From: Acidobacteriota bacterium
GTDB taxonomy: Bacteria > Acidobacteriota > CAIWXX01
DNA length: 64,000 bases
Assembly (NCBI GenBank): GCA_040755995.1
Contig: JBFMAF010000055.1
Coordinates: forward strand, 1-64,000
Direction of reading: 5' to 3'
Every line of letters starts with the position of its first letter. Position 1 is the first letter of the stretch. Below, piece by piece: positions 48,255-57,839 of this stretch. Both the position numbers and the translations under genes were made by a program. The notes below the pieces were generated by a model. That model saw only the letters and a program-made list of their open reading frames with translations, did not search any database and was not told the origin of the DNA.

Positions 48255-50459
48255 TTATCCGCAACCGGATCGGACAAGGAACCCGTGAAGGGCGATAGCG
48301 AGACTCGGATTTTCAAGCTCGAGCAGGACGCGGGCATCGGGGGAGAGGAGCGCCGTCCTGCAGTTCGAGTCGGCCCGGACGGTGGTCGTTGCAGTATAGC
48401 TTGCGAACGCAGCGGTGGCGGCTATGACGCTTCCTGGCGACAAAGAGCGCACCCGGCTGCCGGTGTCCGGGTCGATCTCGCTGGCCGTTCCCCAGGTAAG
48501 GAGGCGAAGCCCTGCGGGCGTTTCGCCTTTGGCCAGGATTGAGCTCCCTGCAGGGTGCTCCTGCTTTTCCAGCCAGGGGGCAAGGCCATCCAGCAACTGC
48601 TCAAAACGCTCCTGTTGCTCAAGATGAGCCATGACGTCATCCACCGATTGGTGAAAGAGCGCTTCGCGCATCGAGGCGCGATGCTCGCGGTTCGAGAGAG
48701 TTCGCTGGATGAGCTGATCTTCGCACCATTCAAGACCGCGATCGAGGTCCGTGAAGAAGACGAGTGTGTTCATAACCCCGTCGGACAGGCCTCGCTTCAG
48801 CGCCTCCACGAAGTGGTCCGGCAGGGCCGTGACGACAATGGTCGTTCGCGCCGCCGAGGCGTTAAGGGCCAGTCGATGGAAGTGCTTGACGGCTGAGACA
48901 TCGAGGCCCGAGACCCGCGCGAAATCAAGAAGGATGAAATCGGGGTGCGGTTCCGACCTAAGGGCGCCCTTGAGTGATTCCACGAGTGTGGTGGCCGATC
49001 CGAAAAAGATGTAGCCGGACAAGGCATAGCCCCTGACGCGCTCTCCCGTGGCGCTCAACACCTTGCGATGAGGCACGGACCGCGCTCTGCTGCTGCGGCG
49101 ATCCAGGGCGGAAAATTCGATTTCGACCACGGGCACGCGGCTGAAGCGCACCACAAAGAAGATCACGGTGGCGACCAAGCCGACGGCCACTCCCTCCAAA
49201 TATCCACGGGCTGCAATGACAAGGAAGATCACGACCACTACAAGATAGTCGGGCCACGGCAGCCCCTTCCGGCTCGTCAAGAGCCATTCGTGAATCAAGG
49301 AAGAGCCTACCAGCACGAGCATCCCGCCGAGTAACGCGGTGGGAAAATACCCCAAGGCCCTTCCACCGAAGACCAGCACTCCTGCCGCGATCAAGGCGAC
49401 AACGAGCCCTGTGTACCGGGAACGAGCCCCGGTCTTCACGCCGAGGAACGTCAGTGAGATCACCGGGTATCCCGGGAAGCATCCACCAACCCCTGCGAGG
49501 CAGTTGCCCACGCCGCCGCTCACAAACTCGCGGTTCATGTCCAACTCTTCTCCCGCGGCAAGCTCGACACCACTCATGTTGAGCAGCATTCCAACGACGG
49601 TAACCAGGGCCACCGAGAACATGCCCGGCAGCTGTTGCCAGACCACTGACCAGTCGATCAGGGCGATCTCTCCTATCGCAAAGGGCGGAAAGAGCCTTCC
49701 GATCGGAACGCCAGAAACCAAGAACCCTGCCGCTCGGGCGCCATCAAGTGACATCCCGGTCATCGGAAGGAGTACATAGAAAAGCGCCGCGACTGCCGCC
49801 AGTGATCCGGGCAGGATGAGGAAATGGGAATGCCGCCGCGTGATCGCGAACAGAGCCACGCCAAACGCCACACCCGGTAACCATCGAATAACCGTCTCCG
49901 GTGTGACCAGGCGCCCGAACGTCTCCGGAGAAACCGGCACGCCGCACATGACGGAGACACCGCCAGCCACCAACACCCAGCCAGTCCCGGCGAGGAAGCC
50001 ACCCAAGACCGGGTAGGGCATAAAACGGAGTAGGTTCGCAAGATGGAACTTGCCGATGATGATGAAGACCGCACCGGTAAGAACCGCTGAGAGAGTCAGC
50101 ACTGCGGCCACGGTCATAAACTTGGCTTCCATGGGGGCTTGCTCCCCGAGGGTGGCGGCGATCGTGACGGCAACAGTTGAAAGAACGGCGGCTGGAGCGT
50201 CTTGCGCTCCAGAGACTGTCCCCTGAAATGAGCTGGTCAGGGCAGCGCAGATGCAGATAAGGCATCCTCCGCAGAGCGCGAGGCCAGCAGCCCGGGCCGA
50301 GAGCGCGGAAAGACTGCCGGAGTAGATCATTGCGGCGAGCGAAACCTGCAAGATGATGAATGGGGCGGCCGCGACAATACCCGTGCCCACGGCGGGAAGA
50401 ATCCTTTTCGATGTTGCGTCTTCCAGTAGTTCGGAGATCAACGATCTGTTCATGGTCAC
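48255..50459 (-). CDS. SulP/SLC26 anion transporter with STAS and cNMP-binding domains
   Basis: LRFMPYPVLGGFLAGTG; LSGYIFFGSA..LDFARVSGLDVSA (STAS); DLDRGLEWCE; degenerate cNMP domain. Confidence 0.93.
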   Translation of the reverse strand: MTMNRSLISELLEDATSKRILPAVGTGIVAAAPFIILQVSLAAMIYSGSLSALSARAAGLALCGGCLICICAALTSSFQGTVSGAQDAPAAVLSTVAVTIAATLGEQAPMEAKFMTVAAVLTLSAVLTGAVFIIIGKFHLANLLRFMPYPVLGGFLAGTGWVLVAGGVSVMCGVPVSPETFGRLVTPETVIRWLPGVAFGVALFAITRRHSHFLILPGSLAAVAALFYVLLPMTGMSLDGARAAGFLVSGVPIGRLFPPFAIGEIALIDWSVVWQQLPGMFSVALVTVVGMLLNMSGVELAAGEELDMNREFVSGGVGNCLAGVGGCFPGYPVISLTFLGVKTGARSRYTGLVVALIAAGVLVFGGRALGYFPTALLGGMLVLVGSSLIHEWLLTSRKGLPWPDYLVVVVIFLVIAARGYLEGVAVGLVATVIFFVVRFSRVPVVEIEFSALDRRSSRARSVPHRKVLSATGERVRGYALSGYIFFGSATTLVESLKGALRSEPHPDFILLDFARVSGLDVSAVKHFHRLALNASAARTTIVVTALPDHFVEALKRGLSDGVMNTLVFFTDLDRGLEWCEDQLIQRTLSNREHRASMREALFHQSVDDVMAHLEQQERFEQLLDGLAPWLEKQEHPAGSSILAKGETPAGLRLLTWGTASEIDPDTGSRVRSLSPGSVIAATAAFASYTATTTVRADSNCRTALLSPDARVLLELENPSLAIALHGFLVRSGCG

Positions 50460-50602: not shown

Positions 50603-50944
50603 GTGGAGATACGAGTCAAGCAAGAGGATGGGGTCGCGCTAGTCATGCTCGGAGGCCGCTTAGACGCTGCCTCCTCACCAGAACTCGAAGAGCGTCTCTC
50701 GGAAGTGCTTCACAGCGGCGCTTGCGCCCTGGTTTTGAACGTTTCCGGCCTGACCCATATCAGCAGCGCAGGTTTGAGGTGCATTCTCTTTGCGGGAAAG
50801 ACGATCAAGGCCCGGAATGGCCGGATCGCCCTGACCGGCGCACAGGGAATGGTGATGGACGTGTTGAAGACATCCGGCTTCGCCGATATTCTCCCGACCT
50901 ACCCATCCGATGAGGATGCGCTGGGAGACCACAGCGAGTGGTAA
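50603..50944 (+). CDS. STAS anti-sigma factor antagonist
   Basis: GGAGG SD before GTG 50603; GRLDAASS, HISSAGLR phospho-Ser motif, VLKTSGF. Confidence 0.92.
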   Translation: MEIRVKQEDGVALVMLGGRLDAASSPELEERLSEVLHSGACALVLNVSGLTHISSAGLRCILFAGKTIKARNGRIALTGAQGMVMDVLKTSGFADILPTYPSDEDALGDHSEW

Positions 50945-51202: not shown

Positions 51203-52951
51203 GTGAACGACCTTGAACACGCGGGTCATCGTTTCTCGCCAATCCTTCTCGCAGCTCTCGCCTGTCTGCTCACGCTGCCGGCCCTGAAGGCGGGCCTCAT
51301 CGCCGACGACTACTTCCACCGTACCGTGCTGCTCCATCGGGGCGAACTGGCGCCGTTCATGCATCCCGTCATGGACCTGTTCGCTTTCGTGAAACAGGGT
51401 GAGCCGGCAGACTTGATGCGCGAGGTCGGCTACCTGCCCTGGTGGTCTGACGCCGGTGTTCGCATCTCGCTCTTCCGGCCTCTCACGGCGTTGACCCACG
51501 TTCTTGACTACGCCCTGTGGCCGGATGGAATCGTCTTGCAGCACCTGCACAGCCTCGGCTGGTTCCTTCTGGGCGTTCTTCTCGTTGTCGCTCTCTACCG
51601 GATGGTCCCCGGCATGTCCATCGCCGCGGCATCTCTTGCCGGCCTGTTCTTCGCCGTCGAGGACGCGCACGCGTATCCTGCCGGATGGATTGCCAACAGG
51701 AACGCGCTGCTCTGTCTCGTGTGCGGGACGGCGACTCTCATGTGTCACGTCCGATGGCGAGCCACCGGCCGCGCACGGTGGCTGGTTTTCGCCCTGCTTG
51801 TGTTCGCGGCGGGCCTTGGCTGCGGCGAAGCGACGCTCGGGACGCTGGGCTACCTGGCCGCGTGGCAGCTGACCATGGAGCAGAGGCAACAGCGAATACG
51901 TTCCACGGCCGTCTTGCTGTCGTACGTCGGTCTGGTGTTCCTCTGGCGATTGCTCTATGACACGCTCGGTTACGGCGTCACAGGCTCACGCCTGTACGTC
52001 GATCCGGGTCAGCGACCGCTGCTGTTTCTGCAGGGGCTGGCTGAACGCTTGCCGGTTCTCGTTGCCGGTCAGTGGTTCCAGATACCGGTCGACCTGTGGA
52101 TCCTGCTGACAGGTGCACAGCGAATCGCGGTCTCTCTGGCCTCCGCAGTTCTCGCCGCAGCCATCTTCTGGCTCCTCTGGCCGCTGCTGAAACGCCCTCT
52201 CGCGCGTTTCTGGGCGACCGGTATGGCCCTCTCGCTTGTCCCCCTCTGCGCCGCTTTTCCAATGGACAGGCTCCTCATCTTCTCGGGCATCGGCGCTTTC
52301 GGCCTCCTGGCGCTGTTCGTCGATGCCTACTTACTTTCCTCGCCGGTCTCAGCCCGCTGGCGCAGGCGCGCAGCGATCGTTTTGCTGGCGCTCCACGGCC
52401 CGATCGCGGCAATCCTGCTCCTCCTGGGGACATTGGGATTGCCGGTGTTCGGGGACTTCTTCAGTGCGGCGGCGCGGCGCAGTCCCACCGGCCCCGAGAT
52501 CGCACAACAGACTTTCGTCTACGTGAATGGGAACGATTTCCCCGTAGTCTACAGCCGCGTCGTTCGAGTCGCCAACGGCGAGCCGGCTCCGCGACGCGTG
52601 GCGCAGCTCGCGTCGATGACGGACACGAACCAGATCTACCGCAAGGACATCAACACGCTGGTCGCTACGCCCGGCGACGGGTTTCTAGCGCATCCCATTG
52701 ACCGCCTGCTAGCGAGCGAGGACCGTCGCTTCCATCCGGGTGACCGAATCGAGCGTCCCGACTACCAGGTGGAAGTTGTCAGCGTCACCAGGGACGGGCG
52801 CCCGGCCAGCGTGTCTTTCAAGTTCCGTCAGCCGCTGGAGGACCCATCTCTCCGCTGGCTCTACTGGAAGGACCACCGCCTGCAGCAGTTCCCGCTTCCG
52901 GTAGTCGGAAGCTCAGTCCTGGTTCCAGCTATCAGGTTCGATCCTTTCTGA
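51203..52951 (+). CDS. Multi-pass membrane protein, GT-C-like
   Basis: GLIADDY, FRPL, HLHSL, WIANRNAL, ~11 TM segments and a C-terminal soluble domain. Confidence 0.75.
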   Translation: MNDLEHAGHRFSPILLAALACLLTLPALKAGLIADDYFHRTVLLHRGELAPFMHPVMDLFAFVKQGEPADLMREVGYLPWWSDAGVRISLFRPLTALTHVLDYALWPDGIVLQHLHSLGWFLLGVLLVVALYRMVPGMSIAAASLAGLFFAVEDAHAYPAGWIANRNALLCLVCGTATLMCHVRWRATGRARWLVFALLVFAAGLGCGEATLGTLGYLAAWQLTMEQRQQRIRSTAVLLSYVGLVFLWRLLYDTLGYGVTGSRLYVDPGQRPLLFLQGLAERLPVLVAGQWFQIPVDLWILLTGAQRIAVSLASAVLAAAIFWLLWPLLKRPLARFWATGMALSLVPLCAAFPMDRLLIFSGIGAFGLLALFVDAYLLSSPVSARWRRRAAIVLLALHGPIAAILLLLGTLGLPVFGDFFSAAARRSPTGPEIAQQTFVYVNGNDFPVVYSRVVRVANGEPAPRRVAQLASMTDTNQIYRKDINTLVATPGDGFLAHPIDRLLASEDRRFHPGDRIERPDYQVEVVSVTRDGRPASVSFKFRQPLEDPSLRWLYWKDHRLQQFPLPVVGSSVLVPAIRFDPF

Positions 52952-53143: not shown

Positions 53144-54202
53144 CTATCGTGGGCACCGGTCATCCAGGAGGAACTCCTGGATGTAGCTGACGCCGATCAG
53201 GGCGCCGGTCACGGTTGAATTGTCGAGGATGTGCCTCATGTCAATCATGCGGCCGTTTTCGATGACTCCCCTGATCTCAGCTTCGAGGCTGGCGGCTTTC
53301 TCAGGGAGCGGCATCGCGGAAAAGATCACGGCATGCTCGTGGAGAAGCTCGGTCTTGGCTCCGATGTTTGCCGGATGGACGTAGAACACGGCATTGAATC
53401 GGTCCTTGGAGAACGCCGATAGATCGGCTGTCAGGTCGACACCTACGCCGCAGATCAAAGCAGTGACGTCTTTGTGCCGGGGTTCCTTGTCCAACTCGAA
53501 CCACTCACTCACGTTCGAAGCGTCCGTGATCATCTCGCCGTTCTTAGGGGCGAAGTCCTTTACGGGGGATATCTTGACCGCCGATCCGTAGATGCCCGAC
53601 ATCTGGGCTCGCGCTACGACGCCGATCACACCCTTGTAGTCAGGGCGGCGGGAGCGATACATGTCGAACAGCGATCGGTACACCGACGCCATGTTCGTCC
53701 CGCCCTTTTCACTGCTCTTGAACAGGATCAAGTCATCGAAGCCACCGCTCACCGACACATTGAACGCCGTCTTAATCGTGGCTTTCTCCACGCCCTTGTC
53801 GAAGCGGAGGCAGTCCGGCGAGTCCTTGCCGTCGGCCGGCAGACAGTACATGTTGCCGTCGACGGTGATCATCTCACCAAGTTTCGGGTAGCAGTCCTCG
53901 ATCTGATCGCCCAATGCCCCGAGCCCTATCGAGTACCTTATCTCAGCAGGATGCCTCAGGCAGACGTCCTTTCTCTCGATGCTGGCTCGTAGGACGTTGT
54001 TGACGTTGCCGATGACCTTCACGACTCCATCGGCCTTGTCGCTCCTGATCCGCTCGAATGAGCCATGCTGGTCTTCGATCCGAGTTATGCCGGGTTGGGC
54101 AGGAAGTTGCATTTGCGTGTCCTCCTTGTGGGATGTCTCTTGCGCGTATGGCGCGGAGATCAGCGCCAGGAGCATCAAATGAAGAGCTGGGATTGCGAAC
54201 AA
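53144..54202 (-). CDS. Hypothetical protein with divergent alpha-acetolactate decarboxylase-like fold
   Basis: IGLGALG..LGEMITVDGNMYCLPADG, KTAFNV, LHEHAV, RHILD match the order of ALDC motifs; signal-like N-terminus; alternative ATG at 54112 with AAGGAGG. Confidence 0.7.
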   Translation of the reverse strand: MFAIPALHLMLLALISAPYAQETSHKEDTQMQLPAQPGITRIEDQHGSFERIRSDKADGVVKVIGNVNNVLRASIERKDVCLRHPAEIRYSIGLGALGDQIEDCYPKLGEMITVDGNMYCLPADGKDSPDCLRFDKGVEKATIKTAFNVSVSGGFDDLILFKSSEKGGTNMASVYRSLFDMYRSRRPDYKGVIGVVARAQMSGIYGSAVKISPVKDFAPKNGEMITDASNVSEWFELDKEPRHKDVTALICGVGVDLTADLSAFSKDRFNAVFYVHPANIGAKTELLHEHAVIFSAMPLPEKAASLEAEIRGVIENGRMIDMRHILDNSTVTGALIGVSYIQEFLLDDRCPR

Positions 54203-54272
54203 TCGTCACCTCGAAATTCAATGGAAGTGGTGGGGCAATCCGAAGCCTCGGCGCCGGGGCCAGGCACGGCGC

Positions 54273-55997
54273 TCATGCCATGTCGAGTCGCTTGACGTAG
54301 TTCTTGGAACCCTCGACGTACGACGACAACGGAGGCACCTCGTCGCGGTCGATTACACAGTCGATCACCGCAGGCCGCTTCGCCGCGATCGCTTTCGGCA
54401 GCATCTCCTTCAGCTCATTCGGCCTGGTGGCCCTGTAGCCGACGGCTCCGAACGCCTCGGCGATCTTGGCAAAATCGACGGGCTTGAAAGACGATGCGAC
54501 AGGTTCGATATTCACCATCTTCTGAATGTCATAGGCCATGCCCAGCTTCCCGTTGTTATGGATCACCCAGACCACGGGAATACCGTATTCGACGGCAGTC
54601 GCGATTTCCATCCCGTTCATCAGGAAGCAGCCGTCGCCGACCAGCGCCACCACGGGTCTGTCTTTGGCCGCCACTTTCCCGCCGATGGCTGCGGCCGTTG
54701 CGTAGCCCATCGGGAGCATTCCGAATGCGCATATGAAGCTGCCCGGCCGGCGGACCTTGAGATAGTGCACGGCCCAGTCGGCGTGATTTCCGGTATCGAC
54801 AAACAGTATCGCGTCTTCGGGAAGCGATGCTTCAAGCTCCTTGATGGTGCGCTGGGGCTTGAGCGGAACAGCCTCGGAAGTCATCTTCTCCGGCTCGAGA
54901 TACATCCCCACTTTCCGTCTCAGACTCTCCAACTCCCTCGCGCGTTCGTCCTTTCTCGCTTCGGATTCTCCCATGTACCTCAGGATCCGGAACGACATCT
55001 CGCTCACGACCGTCTGGGCGTCTCCGACCAGCGGGATGTCGGTCTTGTAGTTCTTGCCTATTTCGGTCGGGTCGATATTCACGTGGATGAGGCAGTCGGT
55101 CGGGGAGATCCTGGGGTCCCAGCTCATGGTAGTAAGCTGGTTGAGACTGGCGCCCACGACGAGCAATACGTCGGTCTTGCCCGACTCGATGTAGGCCTCC
55201 GCCAGCGGCGAGCCGCACAGGCCGATCACGCCGAGCGCCAGCGGGTGATCTTCAGGGAAAGCACCCTTGCCTTTTGGAGTAGTGGCCACGGGAATCCCGA
55301 GCATCTCCGCGAGCTCGACGATCTCTCCGGTGGCGCCCGAGACGACCGCGCCCGAGCCGACGATCATCGCGGGCGAACGGGCGGCGACGAGCTTCTTGGC
55401 CGCCTCGATGACGAGCGTGCGGTCGAAGTATTCCCGCGGATAGCGATAGGGTTGTGGAGGCCCGAGGTCGGCGGAAATCTCACCGCCGATCACGTCCTTC
55501 GGCATGCTCAGGTGGACCGGCCCCCGGCGACCGCTCATGGCGATCCTGATCGCCCCCTTGATCTCGTCCTCCATCTTGTACTTCGAAAGCACCATCGAGC
55601 TGTACTTCGTGATTGGATCGAATATCGCCACCGAGTCCACACCCTTCCTCGTCGAGTCCTGGAACGTGCCTTTGCCGTAGTCCAGAGTCGACACCTGTCC
55701 CGTCAGGACGACGATCGGGATGTTGTCGGTGTACGCCGTTGCGACACCCGTGACCAGGTTGGTCGCGCCGGGTCCCGAAGTGGCGTAGCATGCGCCGAGC
55801 GTGCCCTTGACTCGCGCGTACCCGTCGGCCATGAACGCGGCGCCTTCCTCGTGCTTCGTCAATATCGGCTTGATGTTCGGATTGCGATTGAACGCCGCCA
55901 GGAAAGGATTGAGTGCCGCCCCCGAGATTCCGAAGATATAGTCCACACCCTCGTTTTCCAGGTACTTCAGCAGGAGATCGGCCGCAGTCATCTTCAT
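54273..55997 (-). CDS. ThDP-dependent acetolactate synthase-like enzyme
   Basis: HEEGAAFMADGYAR, SGPGATN, KGAFPEDHPL, GDGCFLMNGME...HNN. Confidence 0.93.
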   Translation of the reverse strand: MKMTAADLLLKYLENEGVDYIFGISGAALNPFLAAFNRNPNIKPILTKHEEGAAFMADGYARVKGTLGACYATSGPGATNLVTGVATAYTDNIPIVVLTGQVSTLDYGKGTFQDSTRKGVDSVAIFDPITKYSSMVLSKYKMEDEIKGAIRIAMSGRRGPVHLSMPKDVIGGEISADLGPPQPYRYPREYFDRTLVIEAAKKLVAARSPAMIVGSGAVVSGATGEIVELAEMLGIPVATTPKGKGAFPEDHPLALGVIGLCGSPLAEAYIESGKTDVLLVVGASLNQLTTMSWDPRISPTDCLIHVNIDPTEIGKNYKTDIPLVGDAQTVVSEMSFRILRYMGESEARKDERARELESLRRKVGMYLEPEKMTSEAVPLKPQRTIKELEASLPEDAILFVDTGNHADWAVHYLKVRRPGSFICAFGMLPMGYATAAAIGGKVAAKDRPVVALVGDGCFLMNGMEIATAVEYGIPVVWVIHNNGKLGMAYDIQKMVNIEPVASSFKPVDFAKIAEAFGAVGYRATRPNELKEMLPKAIAAKRPAVIDCVIDRDEVPPLSSYVEGSKNYVKRLDMA

Positions 55998-56095
55998 GAT
56001 TCACCTCAGCTCGGATCGATGTTTCTGACTGCCGGCGATTTCAGCGGGACAGGGGCCTCGCTGAGGGTTGCCTGGCAGTACCTCGTTGCGGTGGC

Positions 56096-56180
56096 AACGT
56101 AGCACCGCGCTGGAGGTGAAGTCAACAAGGCGCCGCCCGTGACATACTCCTTGACAGCCTCGTGGATTCGCCCACATAAT
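56096..56180. promoter_or_regulatory. Back-to-back sigma70 promoters
   Basis: Minus: TTGACT-18-TACGTT (56125-56096). Plus: TTGACA-18-CATAAT (56151-56180). Confidence 0.6.
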
Positions 56181-56267
56181 GCCGCTTCTGGTTTCGACCA
56201 GGAGTAGCAGGGCATCAAGGAGTCGGTCGAAGCGGGCGAGTAGGCTGGACTCCCGGAGGATCGTCAA

Positions 56268-57839
56268 GTGGGCAATCAACTCTTTGCACGGAAGCCGCTC
56301 GAGCTGCTGCTCGAAGAGATGGCTGGTGAGCACAGGCTGCGTCGCATTCTCGGTCCGGTGCAGCTGTCGAGTCTCGGCATCGGAGCGATCGTCGGGACGG
56401 GGATCTTCGTTCTGACCGGCGTGGCAGCGCACGACAGGACCGGGCCGGCGCTGATGCTTTCGTTCGTCGTCTCCGGAGTTGCCTGCATCTTCGCGGCGCT
56501 GTGCTATGCGGAGTTCGCCTCTATGGCGCCTGTGGCGGGCTCAGCCTACACGTATGCCTACGCGACCTTGGGCGAGCTGTTCGCGTGGATCATCGGCTGG
56601 GACCTGGTGCTCGAATACGCGGTGGGCTCCTCCACGGTGGCGCACGGCTGGTCCCACTACTTCCAGGACTTCATCGGCATCCTGGGCTTCCACCTCCCCG
56701 CCTCTCTGAGGAACGCTCCGTTCGACTACGACATGGCCACCGGCAGACTCATTTCGACGGGCACGATTCTGGATCTGCCGGCCGTGGTCATCACGTTCGT
56801 CATCACTGCAATCCTTGTCAAAGGTATCAGAGAAAGCGCCAGCTTCAACGCCACGATGGTCATGCTGAAGGTATCCATCGTGATCTTCGTGATCGTCGTC
56901 GGAGCCTTCTACGTCAACCCCGCCAACTGGCACCCGTTTGCTCCGTTCGGACTTACGGGGATCAGCTTCTTCGGCAAGACCCTGGCGGGCCAGACGGGGC
57001 CGGGTGGCGAGCCAGTCGGCATGCTCGCCGGAGCCGCGATCATCTTTTTCGCATACATCGGATTCGATTCAGTGTCGACACACGCCGAGGAGGCTCGCAA
57101 GCCTCAGCGCGACGTACCAATCGGCATCGTCTCCTCCCTGATCATCTGCACGATACTCTACATCGCCGTCTCAGCCGTTCTGACGGGCATGGTACCGCAT
57201 GACCAGATCGATATCAGCGCGCCCGTGTCGAAGGCCTTCGAGAAAGTCGGACTGCACTGGGCGCAGTTCTTGATCTCACTTGGAGCCGTCGCGGGCATCA
57301 CGTCGGTTCTTCTGGTGATGATGTTGAGCCAGCCACGAGTCCTTCTGGCGATGGCTCGTGATGAGCTCATTCCCAAGAGCTTCTTCGGCGCGGTGCACCC
57401 GCGTTTTCGCACTCCATGGAAATCGACCATCTTGACCGGTCTGTTCGTCGCCTCTCTGGCGGCGTTCCTGCCGCTGCGGATTCTGGCCGAGCTGGTCAAC
57501 ATCGGGACCTTGCTGGCATTCACTATCGTCTGCGCCGCGGTGCTGATCATGCGAAGAACATACCCGGATGCTCAGCGGCCTTTCCGCGCTCCGTGGGTGC
57601 CCGTCGTGCCGATCCTCGGCATCCTCTCCTGCCTACTGCTCATGTTCTCGCTGCCAGCCGAGAACTGGCTGCGGCTCTTCGTCTGGCTCGCGATCGGCCT
57701 GCTCATCTACTTCTTCTATGGCCGGCGGCACAGCGTAATGGCCCGCTACATCGCACACGAGATTTCCGCCCACGGCGTGTCGCCGGCCGGGTCCCTCGCT
57801 ACCGACGTCGACGAGGATTTACCCGAAAGCAAGAAGTAG
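56268..57839 (+). CDS. APC-family amino acid permease (CAT/YhdG-like)
   Basis: GAIVGTGIF, LCYAEFAS..PVAGSAYTY, GWDLVLEY, FFAYIGFD, NIGTL. Confidence 0.96.
   Translation: MGNQLFARKPLELLLEEMAGEHRLRRILGPVQLSSLGIGAIVGTGIFVLTGVAAHDRTGPALMLSFVVSGVACIFAALCYAEFASMAPVAGSAYTYAYATLGELFAWIIGWDLVLEYAVGSSTVAHGWSHYFQDFIGILGFHLPASLRNAPFDYDMATGRLISTGTILDLPAVVITFVITAILVKGIRESASFNATMVMLKVSIVIFVIVVGAFYVNPANWHPFAPFGLTGISFFGKTLAGQTGPGGEPVGMLAGAAIIFFAYIGFDSVSTHAEEARKPQRDVPIGIVSSLIICTILYIAVSAVLTGMVPHDQIDISAPVSKAFEKVGLHWAQFLISLGAVAGITSVLLVMMLSQPRVLLAMARDELIPKSFFGAVHPRFRTPWKSTILTGLFVASLAAFLPLRILAELVNIGTLLAFTIVCAAVLIMRRTYPDAQRPFRAPWVPVVPILGILSCLLLMFSLPAENWLRLFVWLAIGLLIYFFYGRRHSVMARYIAHEISAHGVSPAGSLATDVDEDLPESKK

Follow-up and report, generated by a model that had tools for sequence, protein, structure and literature searches.

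What do two adjacent genes make when the first encodes a carboligase and the second a protein with no match in Pfam? The question is raised by a 64,000-nucleotide stretch of DNA (the window) from an Acidobacteriota bacterium (assembly GCA_040755995.1, contig JBFMAF010000055.1, positions 1 to 64,000). The first gene encodes a 574-aa carboligase-type enzyme that depends on thiamine diphosphate (ThDP; 54273..55997, minus strand). The second encodes an orphan protein of 322 aa when read from ATG 54112 (53144..54112, minus strand). A preliminary description of the locus had proposed a dedicated two-gene pathway to a product other than acetoin, in which the orphan is a divergent protein of the acetolactate decarboxylase (ALDC) fold. 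Both open reading frames (ORFs) are present on the minus strand and every motif quoted for them is found in the translations. The reading preferred here, with a probability of about 45%, is that the carboligase and a rebuilt decarboxylase make an acyloin and are the enzyme arm of a STAS-based switch, from which the window pair has become detached.

The ThDP enzyme and its partner-switching neighbours

The ThDP enzyme matches Pfam TPP_enzyme_N/M/C and falls below all 25 of the NCBIfam cut-offs shown. It scores 448.8 bits with TIGR00118, the large subunit of acetohydroxyacid synthase (AHAS; cut-off 538.35), and 320.8 bits with AlsS NF006378 (cut-off 510). The enzyme retains the catalytic Glu (HEE) and the GDG...NN motifs for ThDP, and has other residues in place of RFDDR and the Trp of AHAS. 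These replacements and the TIGR00118 score bear out the earlier remark that the enzyme departs from biosynthetic AHAS. The best match in the Protein Data Bank (PDB) is BbmA (E 8e-148; the best AHAS gives 4e-74). BbmA, CsmA and CybE (PDB 8x3x, 8xod, 8x3z) are the closest solved relatives and share KHEEGAAFM and the S-W-D-P region in place of RFDDR. In one report, CsmA and an enzyme printed as 'BpmA' (taken as BbmA) are homologues of CybE that make alpha-hydroxy-beta-keto acids, and CybE itself couples ketoisovalerate and hydroxyphenylpyruvate (PMC12395478). The window enzyme belongs to a separate clade (at least 55% identity to the window protein) with a tree support of 0.994, and its subclade has a support of 1.0.

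Close relatives of the ThDP enzyme belong with partner-switching genes, a link that the preliminary description missed. A metagenome scan gave 588 loci, of which the best 80 were compared: 40 close loci (at least 55% identity) and 40 more distant ones with a similar amount of DNA. A STAS gene is directly upstream of the ThDP gene in 28/40 close loci and in 0/40 distant loci. When the whole flank is considered, STAS, RsbW, SpoIIE or 5TM-LYT is found in 36/40 close loci versus 0/40 distant loci. The gap between the STAS and ThDP genes is 0-30 nt in every directly adjacent pair measured, and this typical upstream position also sets the clade apart from BbmA, CsmA and CybE. One STAS-ThDP fusion (P0353) was found. 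After nine genome regions were added to the metagenome loci and the set was clustered at 90% identity, switch genes (STAS, RsbW or SpoIIE) stand beside 27/28 close-clade clusters and 0/33 more distant clusters. A complex prediction for the ThDP enzyme and adjacent STAS of one locus (L090, one chain each) scored 0.01 and gave no answer, which is not evidence either way.

The association extends to archaea. In one archaeal class the ThDP clade is present in 8/79 genomes, with SpoIIE and RsbW downstream in 8/8 loci and a whole STAS ORF upstream in 7/8, so that these copies form STAS-ThDP-phosphatase-RsbW operons. The relatives resemble the RsbU-RsbV-RsbW and SpoIIE-SpoIIAA-SpoIIAB systems in having a phospho-Ser STAS, a HATPase_c_2 kinase and a SpoIIE phosphatase in one operon. 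They differ in that a ThDP enzyme and ALDC-fold domains are part of the operon, which is also found in archaea. Neither a kinase nor a phosphatase gene is present at the window locus; the RsbW and SpoIIE matches of the window genome are only on other contigs.

Some of the loci hold further genes of possible interest. A PCC/DUF296 protein, of the ALDC structural superfamily, directly follows the STAS-ThDP pair in a single case (L100 3807-4217). NMT1/THI5-like binding proteins are among the switch genes of L097, L103 and L114 and are possibly an input from thiamine precursors. Four loci with more BbmA-like enzymes (L110, L141, L143 and L153; 42-49% identity) have genes that look by eye like response regulators and sensor kinases, which suggests that ThDP carboligases have repeatedly been recruited to signalling loci.

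The predicted fold and active site of the orphan

The orphan sequence has no match in Pfam (none at E up to 1), NCBIfam or the PDB. A STAS-free profile of its family gives nothing significant against the PDB, a search of the ESM Atlas gives no usable match (the Atlas's own model is poor), and PF03306, the canonical ALDC family, has no match anywhere in the window genome. AlphaFold models built from two different alignments have pLDDT values of 91.8 and 92.4. With the orphan model, Foldseek ranks ALDC structures first (E 4e-8). An exhaustive VIA-align comparison with 48,161 chains results in Z of 17.8-18.1 for ALDCs, 15.2 for PTD012 and 6.8-8.9 for PPC-type proteins, with the rest at or below 3.0. 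The best superposition is on 4bt2 (Z 18.1, rmsd 2.9, 211 aligned), and the second model gives Z of 18.1-19.0 for nine ALDC entries. A profile-profile comparison with 11 canonical ALDCs gives a probability of only 5.5%, with just the N-terminal GE region in register. The orphan is predicted to have the ALDC fold, with a resemblance that is barely detectable by sequence alone, and the agreement of both models supports what had been suspected from motifs. It would be an ALDC-fold protein outside of PF03306 and would add a branch to the ALDC/C11orf54 fold.

The putative metal site is well conserved. In the numbering of the 322-aa form, Glu80 (codon 53873..53875, minus strand) aligns with the ALDC GE motif as the equivalent of Glu65. 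His258-x-His260 (53333..53341, minus strand) and His294 of the Arg293-His294 pair (53231..53236, minus strand) are the putative ligands of a metal that would be zinc, and all three sit on strands in the predicted model. Among 114 close homologues, Glu80 is present in 113, His258 in 112, His260 in 111, His294 in 113 and Arg293 in all 114. Among 106 distant homologues, His258 is present in 87, His260 in 92 and Arg293 in only 20. In a wider set of 249 domains (143 close and 106 distant, picked by length from 282), the three His and Glu occur together in 137/143 close and 80/106 distant members. The counts confirm the earlier statement that the Glu and the three His are retained.

Other parts of the site seem to be rebuilt. 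The roles of ALDC residues such as Glu253 are taken from PMC9090609, and the numbering was checked on the 4bt2 chain sequence. The last orphan residue (322) aligns with 4bt2 residue 233, 20 residues short of Glu253, so the tail that carries this residue has no counterpart in the structural alignment. The distance from H260 to H294 is 34 residues, compared to 11 from H196 to H207 in 4bt2. Both the absent tail and the long insertion between the His ligands had been described correctly. The proposed replacement of the ALDC Arg (GSAV) is plausible from strand order, which places Arg145 at S177 (Ser in 118/143, Ala in 21/143); the counterpart of Arg145 is probably Ser177. Arg293 could be considered as a stand-in, but it adjoins His294 on a strand and may face away from the metal. 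Further candidates to take over from Arg145 and Glu253 are H246, N249, D94 and D97. A covariation analysis of the family (249 rows) is dominated by gap noise.

These changes can be compared to C11orf54/PTD012 (PDB 1xcr), a beta-keto-L-gulonate decarboxylase. According to PMC12337341, it has the ALDC fold and a three-His site, both ALDC catalytic residues (Arg and Glu) are replaced, and it still decarboxylates a beta-keto acid. Therefore, the rebuilt site of the orphan need not be dead. C11orf54 is similar to the orphan in structure (Z 15) but differs in its low identity (11%) and in its eukaryotic sugar-acid pathway. It also has an H217/R263 pair. The comparison to alsSD/budBA (PF03306; PDB 4bt2, 6j92, 5yho, 5xne) is also mixed. 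The likeness is in the gene order (an ALDC-fold gene after that for a ThDP enzyme), the Glu and His-x-His...His motif, and the absence of IlvH and IlvC alongside. The differences are that the ThDP enzyme is not AlsS by its score, that the orphan is only 10-16% identical to ALDC with no PF03306 match, two insertions, no Glu253 tail and probably no Arg145, and that both window families are linked to STAS/RsbW/SpoIIE genes.

Relatives of the orphan are normally fused to STAS. A survey for such fusions was strongly positive, with a STAS domain in 110/116 homologues (the orphan itself included) and the phospho-Ser motif in 106/114 of those scanned. At 79 genome loci of the ALDC-like family, an in-frame STAS fusion is found in 75/79 and an RsbW-like match in the flank of 25/79. 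The family has 407 representatives at 50% identity. The window orphan is therefore a STAS-less form of a switch-protein domain. STAS is also absent from stand-alone members of about 285 aa, a subfamily that, like the window copy and its homologue P0002, retains the Glu and three His. Long ORFs elsewhere hold further combinations. A glycosyl hydrolase 3-SLH-sensor-domain protein is fused to a canonical ALDC domain in L002 (2275-6189), and a similar long ORF has ALDC at its end in L003 (1450-4773); each is 1.5-2 kb from a STAS-ALDC-like gene.

Coupling of the two genes and competing explanations

Among the best 80 of 588 metagenome loci, the nearest relatives of the ThDP enzyme are in L102, L103 and L109, a single lineage with 69-71% identity, and in all three a canonical PF03306 ALDC lies within about 20 nt downstream. 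This gene occupies the position of the orphan and retains the Arg and the terminal Glu, and in L103 and L109 it is followed by STAS. In a second lineage (L118 and L209) a canonical ALDC is just upstream of STAS-ThDP. The close ThDP clade has a canonical ALDC as its neighbour in two separate lineages, and none of the 33 more distant clusters has one. The L109 flank has genes that by eye are like glycogen debranching enzyme, GAPDH, phosphofructokinase and pyruvate kinase, and these neighbours suggest pyruvate as the substrate. The canonical ALDC beside the same ThDP subclade, once in a glycogen/glycolysis cluster, points to plain acetoin, and the earlier proposal of a non-acetoin product is not supported.

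The orphan's own family is also found near the clade. Five loci (L052, L061, L063, L099 and L101) have a STAS-ALDC-like gene no more than 8 kb from the ThDP clade, and in L052 the two are co-directional and contiguous. In the branch of the window's subclade other than that of L102, L103 and L109, there is a further sign. For 4/8 of the closest ThDP homologues (P0268 and P0270-P0272), the contig is equal in size to that of a STAS-ALDC-like protein from the same source, with 0.07 expected; three sizes are exact and one is within 1 base, which is an indirect sign of a shared contig. One such contig is only 3,640 bp, so the two genes would be adjacent. The nearest linked cases are all within the window's ThDP subclade (support 1.0). 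The link between the ThDP clade and the ALDC fold is recurrent but optional.

In the preferred reading, an alpha-hydroxy-beta-keto acid would be formed by the ThDP enzyme from a pair of small 2-oxo acids and then decarboxylated to an acyloin (acetoin or an analogue) by the orphan, as a metal protein with the predicted ALDC fold. Given this reading, conversion of pyruvate to acetoin has about even odds. In relatives the pair would be wired to a partner switch of the RsbU/RsbV/RsbW type, in which the phosphorylation of the STAS next to or fused to the enzymes would be set by an RsbW kinase and a sensor phosphatase that often carries a 5TM-LYT domain of the BtsS type. The STAS would contact the enzymes, which may be either the output of the switch or the makers of its input. 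According to PMC10653868, the pyruvate site of the LytS-type receptor BtsS includes R72, R99, C110 and S113. The 5TM-5TMR_LYT domains of the linked phosphatases retain R72, R99 and C110 in 33/33 rows, a count that includes duplicates and stands without comparison to family-wide conservation. They differ from BtsS in that they are fused to a SpoIIE phosphatase, not to a histidine kinase, and no BtsS-type 5TM-LYT domain was matched in the window genome.

A wider form of this proposal is somewhat doubtful. It holds that a sigma-independent switch is common to anaerobic bacteria and archaea, in which a ThDP carboligase and an ALDC-fold decarboxylase are the direct targets, through STAS, of RsbW and a sensor phosphatase of the 2-oxo-acid type. 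We know of no sigma factors in archaea. Such a circuit might work as a phospho-gated pyruvate overflow valve or as an acyloin synthase-receptor loop with the window pair as its enzyme arm, a suggestion that is equally tentative.

Several results weigh against the preferred reading. The close ThDP clade is in only 1/50 whole genomes with an ALDC-like gene; these 50 come from the 79 ALDC-like loci, are incomplete metagenome-assembled genomes and do not include L052, L061 and L063 with their known linkage. Only 3/79 ALDC-like loci hold the close ThDP clade, and an ALDC-fold gene is in the fetched flank of only 4/28 ThDP clusters. Linkage of the two families, for which a survey had been proposed earlier, recurs at several loci but is not seen in most of these genomes. 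In the archaeal class of 79 genomes, the ThDP clade is found in 8, the ALDC-like gene in 9, and the two together in 3 (0.9 expected; p = 0.044, with kin not independent). A count in the class of one further genome (G429; 251 genomes) adds nothing either way: 2 have the ThDP clade and 3 the ALDC-like gene, and both of the double positives are the starting genomes. L052 and L061 each have an interrupted ThDP gene. In place of BtsS S113, 26/33 rows of the linked 5TM-LYT domains have Ala, again with duplicates included. The missing Glu253 tail and the probable Ser177 in place of Arg145 belong here as well. So do other contexts of the family, which suit a sensor: the ALDC-like domain is elsewhere fused with TCAD9, with Ser/Thr kinases or with a SIR2/deacetylase protein, and a distant STAS-ALDC-fold subfamily is inside ABC importer operons of the PF04392 type. 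The SIR2 case is P0228 (1837 aa), which has SIR2-like, NACHT/AAA and histone deacetylase domains and the ALDC-like domain at its end. In L218 and L219 the member of the distant subfamily is flanked by a binding-protein gene and a permease gene, and in L217, L223 and a contig of the window genome (G000 C43) it immediately precedes a permease; a PF04392 binding domain is beside the gene in L217-L220.

The strongest alternative, although itself unlikely, is that the ALDC-fold domain is a ligand sensor and not a catalyst. Its metal site would bind a 2-oxo or hydroxy-keto acid, possibly the product of the ThDP enzyme, and would signal via the fused STAS, so that the two proteins are a signal synthase and its receiver. 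The frequency of in-frame STAS fusion with a phospho-Ser motif, the kinase and TCAD9 fusions, the placement in ABC importers, the loss of the Glu253 tail and the occurrence of the family mostly without the ThDP clade are all consistent with a sensor. However, sister ThDP loci have an intact canonical ALDC at the same position, and the window copy, P0002 and the stand-alone subfamily retain the Glu and three His despite having no STAS to signal through. Catalysis in C11orf54 also survives replacements of this kind.

It is less probable again that the two genes travel together only as accessories of one partner-switching cassette, without a substrate-product relation. Both families are linked to STAS/RsbW/SpoIIE much more closely than to one another, and the ThDP and STAS-ALDC-like genes are on opposite strands in L061, L063, L099 and L101. 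This explanation does not fit well with the window pair, which is still together and co-directional with no switch genes, or with the canonical ALDC, which accompanies the ThDP clade in two separate lineages and is beside no member of the 33 distant clusters.

A BbmA/CybE-like step of secondary metabolism is improbable. In this case larger keto acids (branched or aromatic) would be coupled for a natural product unrelated to signalling, as suggested by BbmA being the best PDB match, by the substrates of CybE and by the amino acid permease transcribed divergently from the pair. The clade is, however, separate from the group with 42-49% identity, and no furanolide-type tailoring or partner genes were recognised among the scanned neighbours of the pair. 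In an ungapped reading, BbmA Gly484 corresponds to Ile492 of the window enzyme. We take this position to be an acceptor-pocket residue, and the Ile then suggests a smaller pocket. Finally, although the only two TPP_enzyme_N matches over the cut-off in the window genome (99.84% complete) could be its AHAS for branched-chain amino acids, this role is very unlikely since both are of this clade and there is no match to IlvD (the positive control matched 14/14), with only a weak partial KARI_N match for ketol-acid reductoisomerase, a score below the TIGR00118 cut-off, and no RFDDR or Trp.

The window locus and the meaning of the finding

The orphan has two candidate starts, each with a sequence like a ribosome-binding site. 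ATG 54112 follows a Shine-Dalgarno-like AAGGAGG (54121..54127, minus strand) by 8 nt and agrees with the start of P0002 (80% identical, 322 aa), leaving a gap of 160 bp to the ThDP gene. TTG 54202, the start given in the preliminary description, is 4 nt after GAGGTG (54212-54207, minus strand), a spacing arranged as at the start of the ThDP gene itself; it results in a protein of 352 aa and a gap of 70 bp. The possible 30-codon extension (54113..54202, minus strand) is an open frame with a hydrophobic stretch that to the eye resembles a signal peptide.

The pair is head-to-head with an amino acid permease (Pfam match; 56268-57839, plus strand), which could supply precursors of 2-oxo acids. The divergent intergenic region (55998..56267) should hold the promoter of the pair by its layout. 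The sole strong consensus site in it (56151-56180, 11/12 sigma-70-like) points at the permease, and no minus-strand promoter for the pair passed the promoter scan. The statement that the ThDP gene has its own promoter is thus backed by the head-to-head layout but not by the scan. No terminator-like or unusually stable structure was found between or after the two genes, and a look-up of sequencing runs for the region listed none. A 582-aa hydrophobic protein without a Pfam or NCBIfam match (51203-52951, plus strand) converges on the pair.

There is a single-domain STAS gene in the window (50609-50944, plus strand), 2.2 kb from the pair and on the opposite strand. Together with a divergent SulP-STAS-cNMP transporter (48255-50459, minus strand) it lies 2-5 kb downstream of the pair. 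This STAS was considered as the partner of the pair, but the assignment is not supported. In a weakly resolved comparison it falls outside both the set of STAS adjacent to ThDP genes and the fused set, and this also counts against the preferred reading. The window pair has no adjacent or fused STAS and, if that reading is correct, would be detached from its switch. A recent horizontal origin is not supported. The GC content at third codon positions (GC3) of the two genes is at the 38th and 62nd percentile among 3,666 long ORFs, and codon usage gives no sign of recent transfer either.

The window genome has a second copy of each family. A ThDP enzyme of the same clade with 59% identity (L080 9938-11665; G000 C28:94937-96658) is directly after a glutamine synthetase and before an array that by eye is like CRISPR repeats, with no STAS match within about 45 kb. 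A second STAS-ALDC-fold protein (L081 8646-11647; G000 C43) is of the distant subfamily. A search of 300 further genomes of the phylum, in which 4 candidates were scored per genome, did not find the ThDP clade.

What is new is the STAS-coupled ThDP clade and its exchange of the orphan for a canonical ALDC. In the open literature, no title or abstract was found that describes a ThDP clade linked to STAS or a protein that joins STAS to the ALDC fold; this search leaves out most subscription journals, and supplementary tables could list either family. The dedicated stand-alone pathway of the preliminary description is not supported, since the orphan's family is normally STAS-fused and mostly without the ThDP clade, and the constant partner of that clade is a STAS gene.

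These results suggest that what such switches govern or detect may be a pathway of small molecules and not a sigma factor. SpoII-type switch sets are described in Methanomicrobiales in PMC2686161, where their targets are said not to be determinable from genome sequence; the archaeal STAS-ThDP-phosphatase-kinase operon is a concrete candidate for such a target. That either a canonical ALDC or the orphan can accompany one and the same ThDP subclade hints at a class of substrate for a widespread domain that has no annotation. If a sigma-independent circuit does exist, the window pair would be the first to hint at a substrate for the STAS-ALDC-fold family, which has no annotation, and as a full-length form free of STAS it is convenient for assay.

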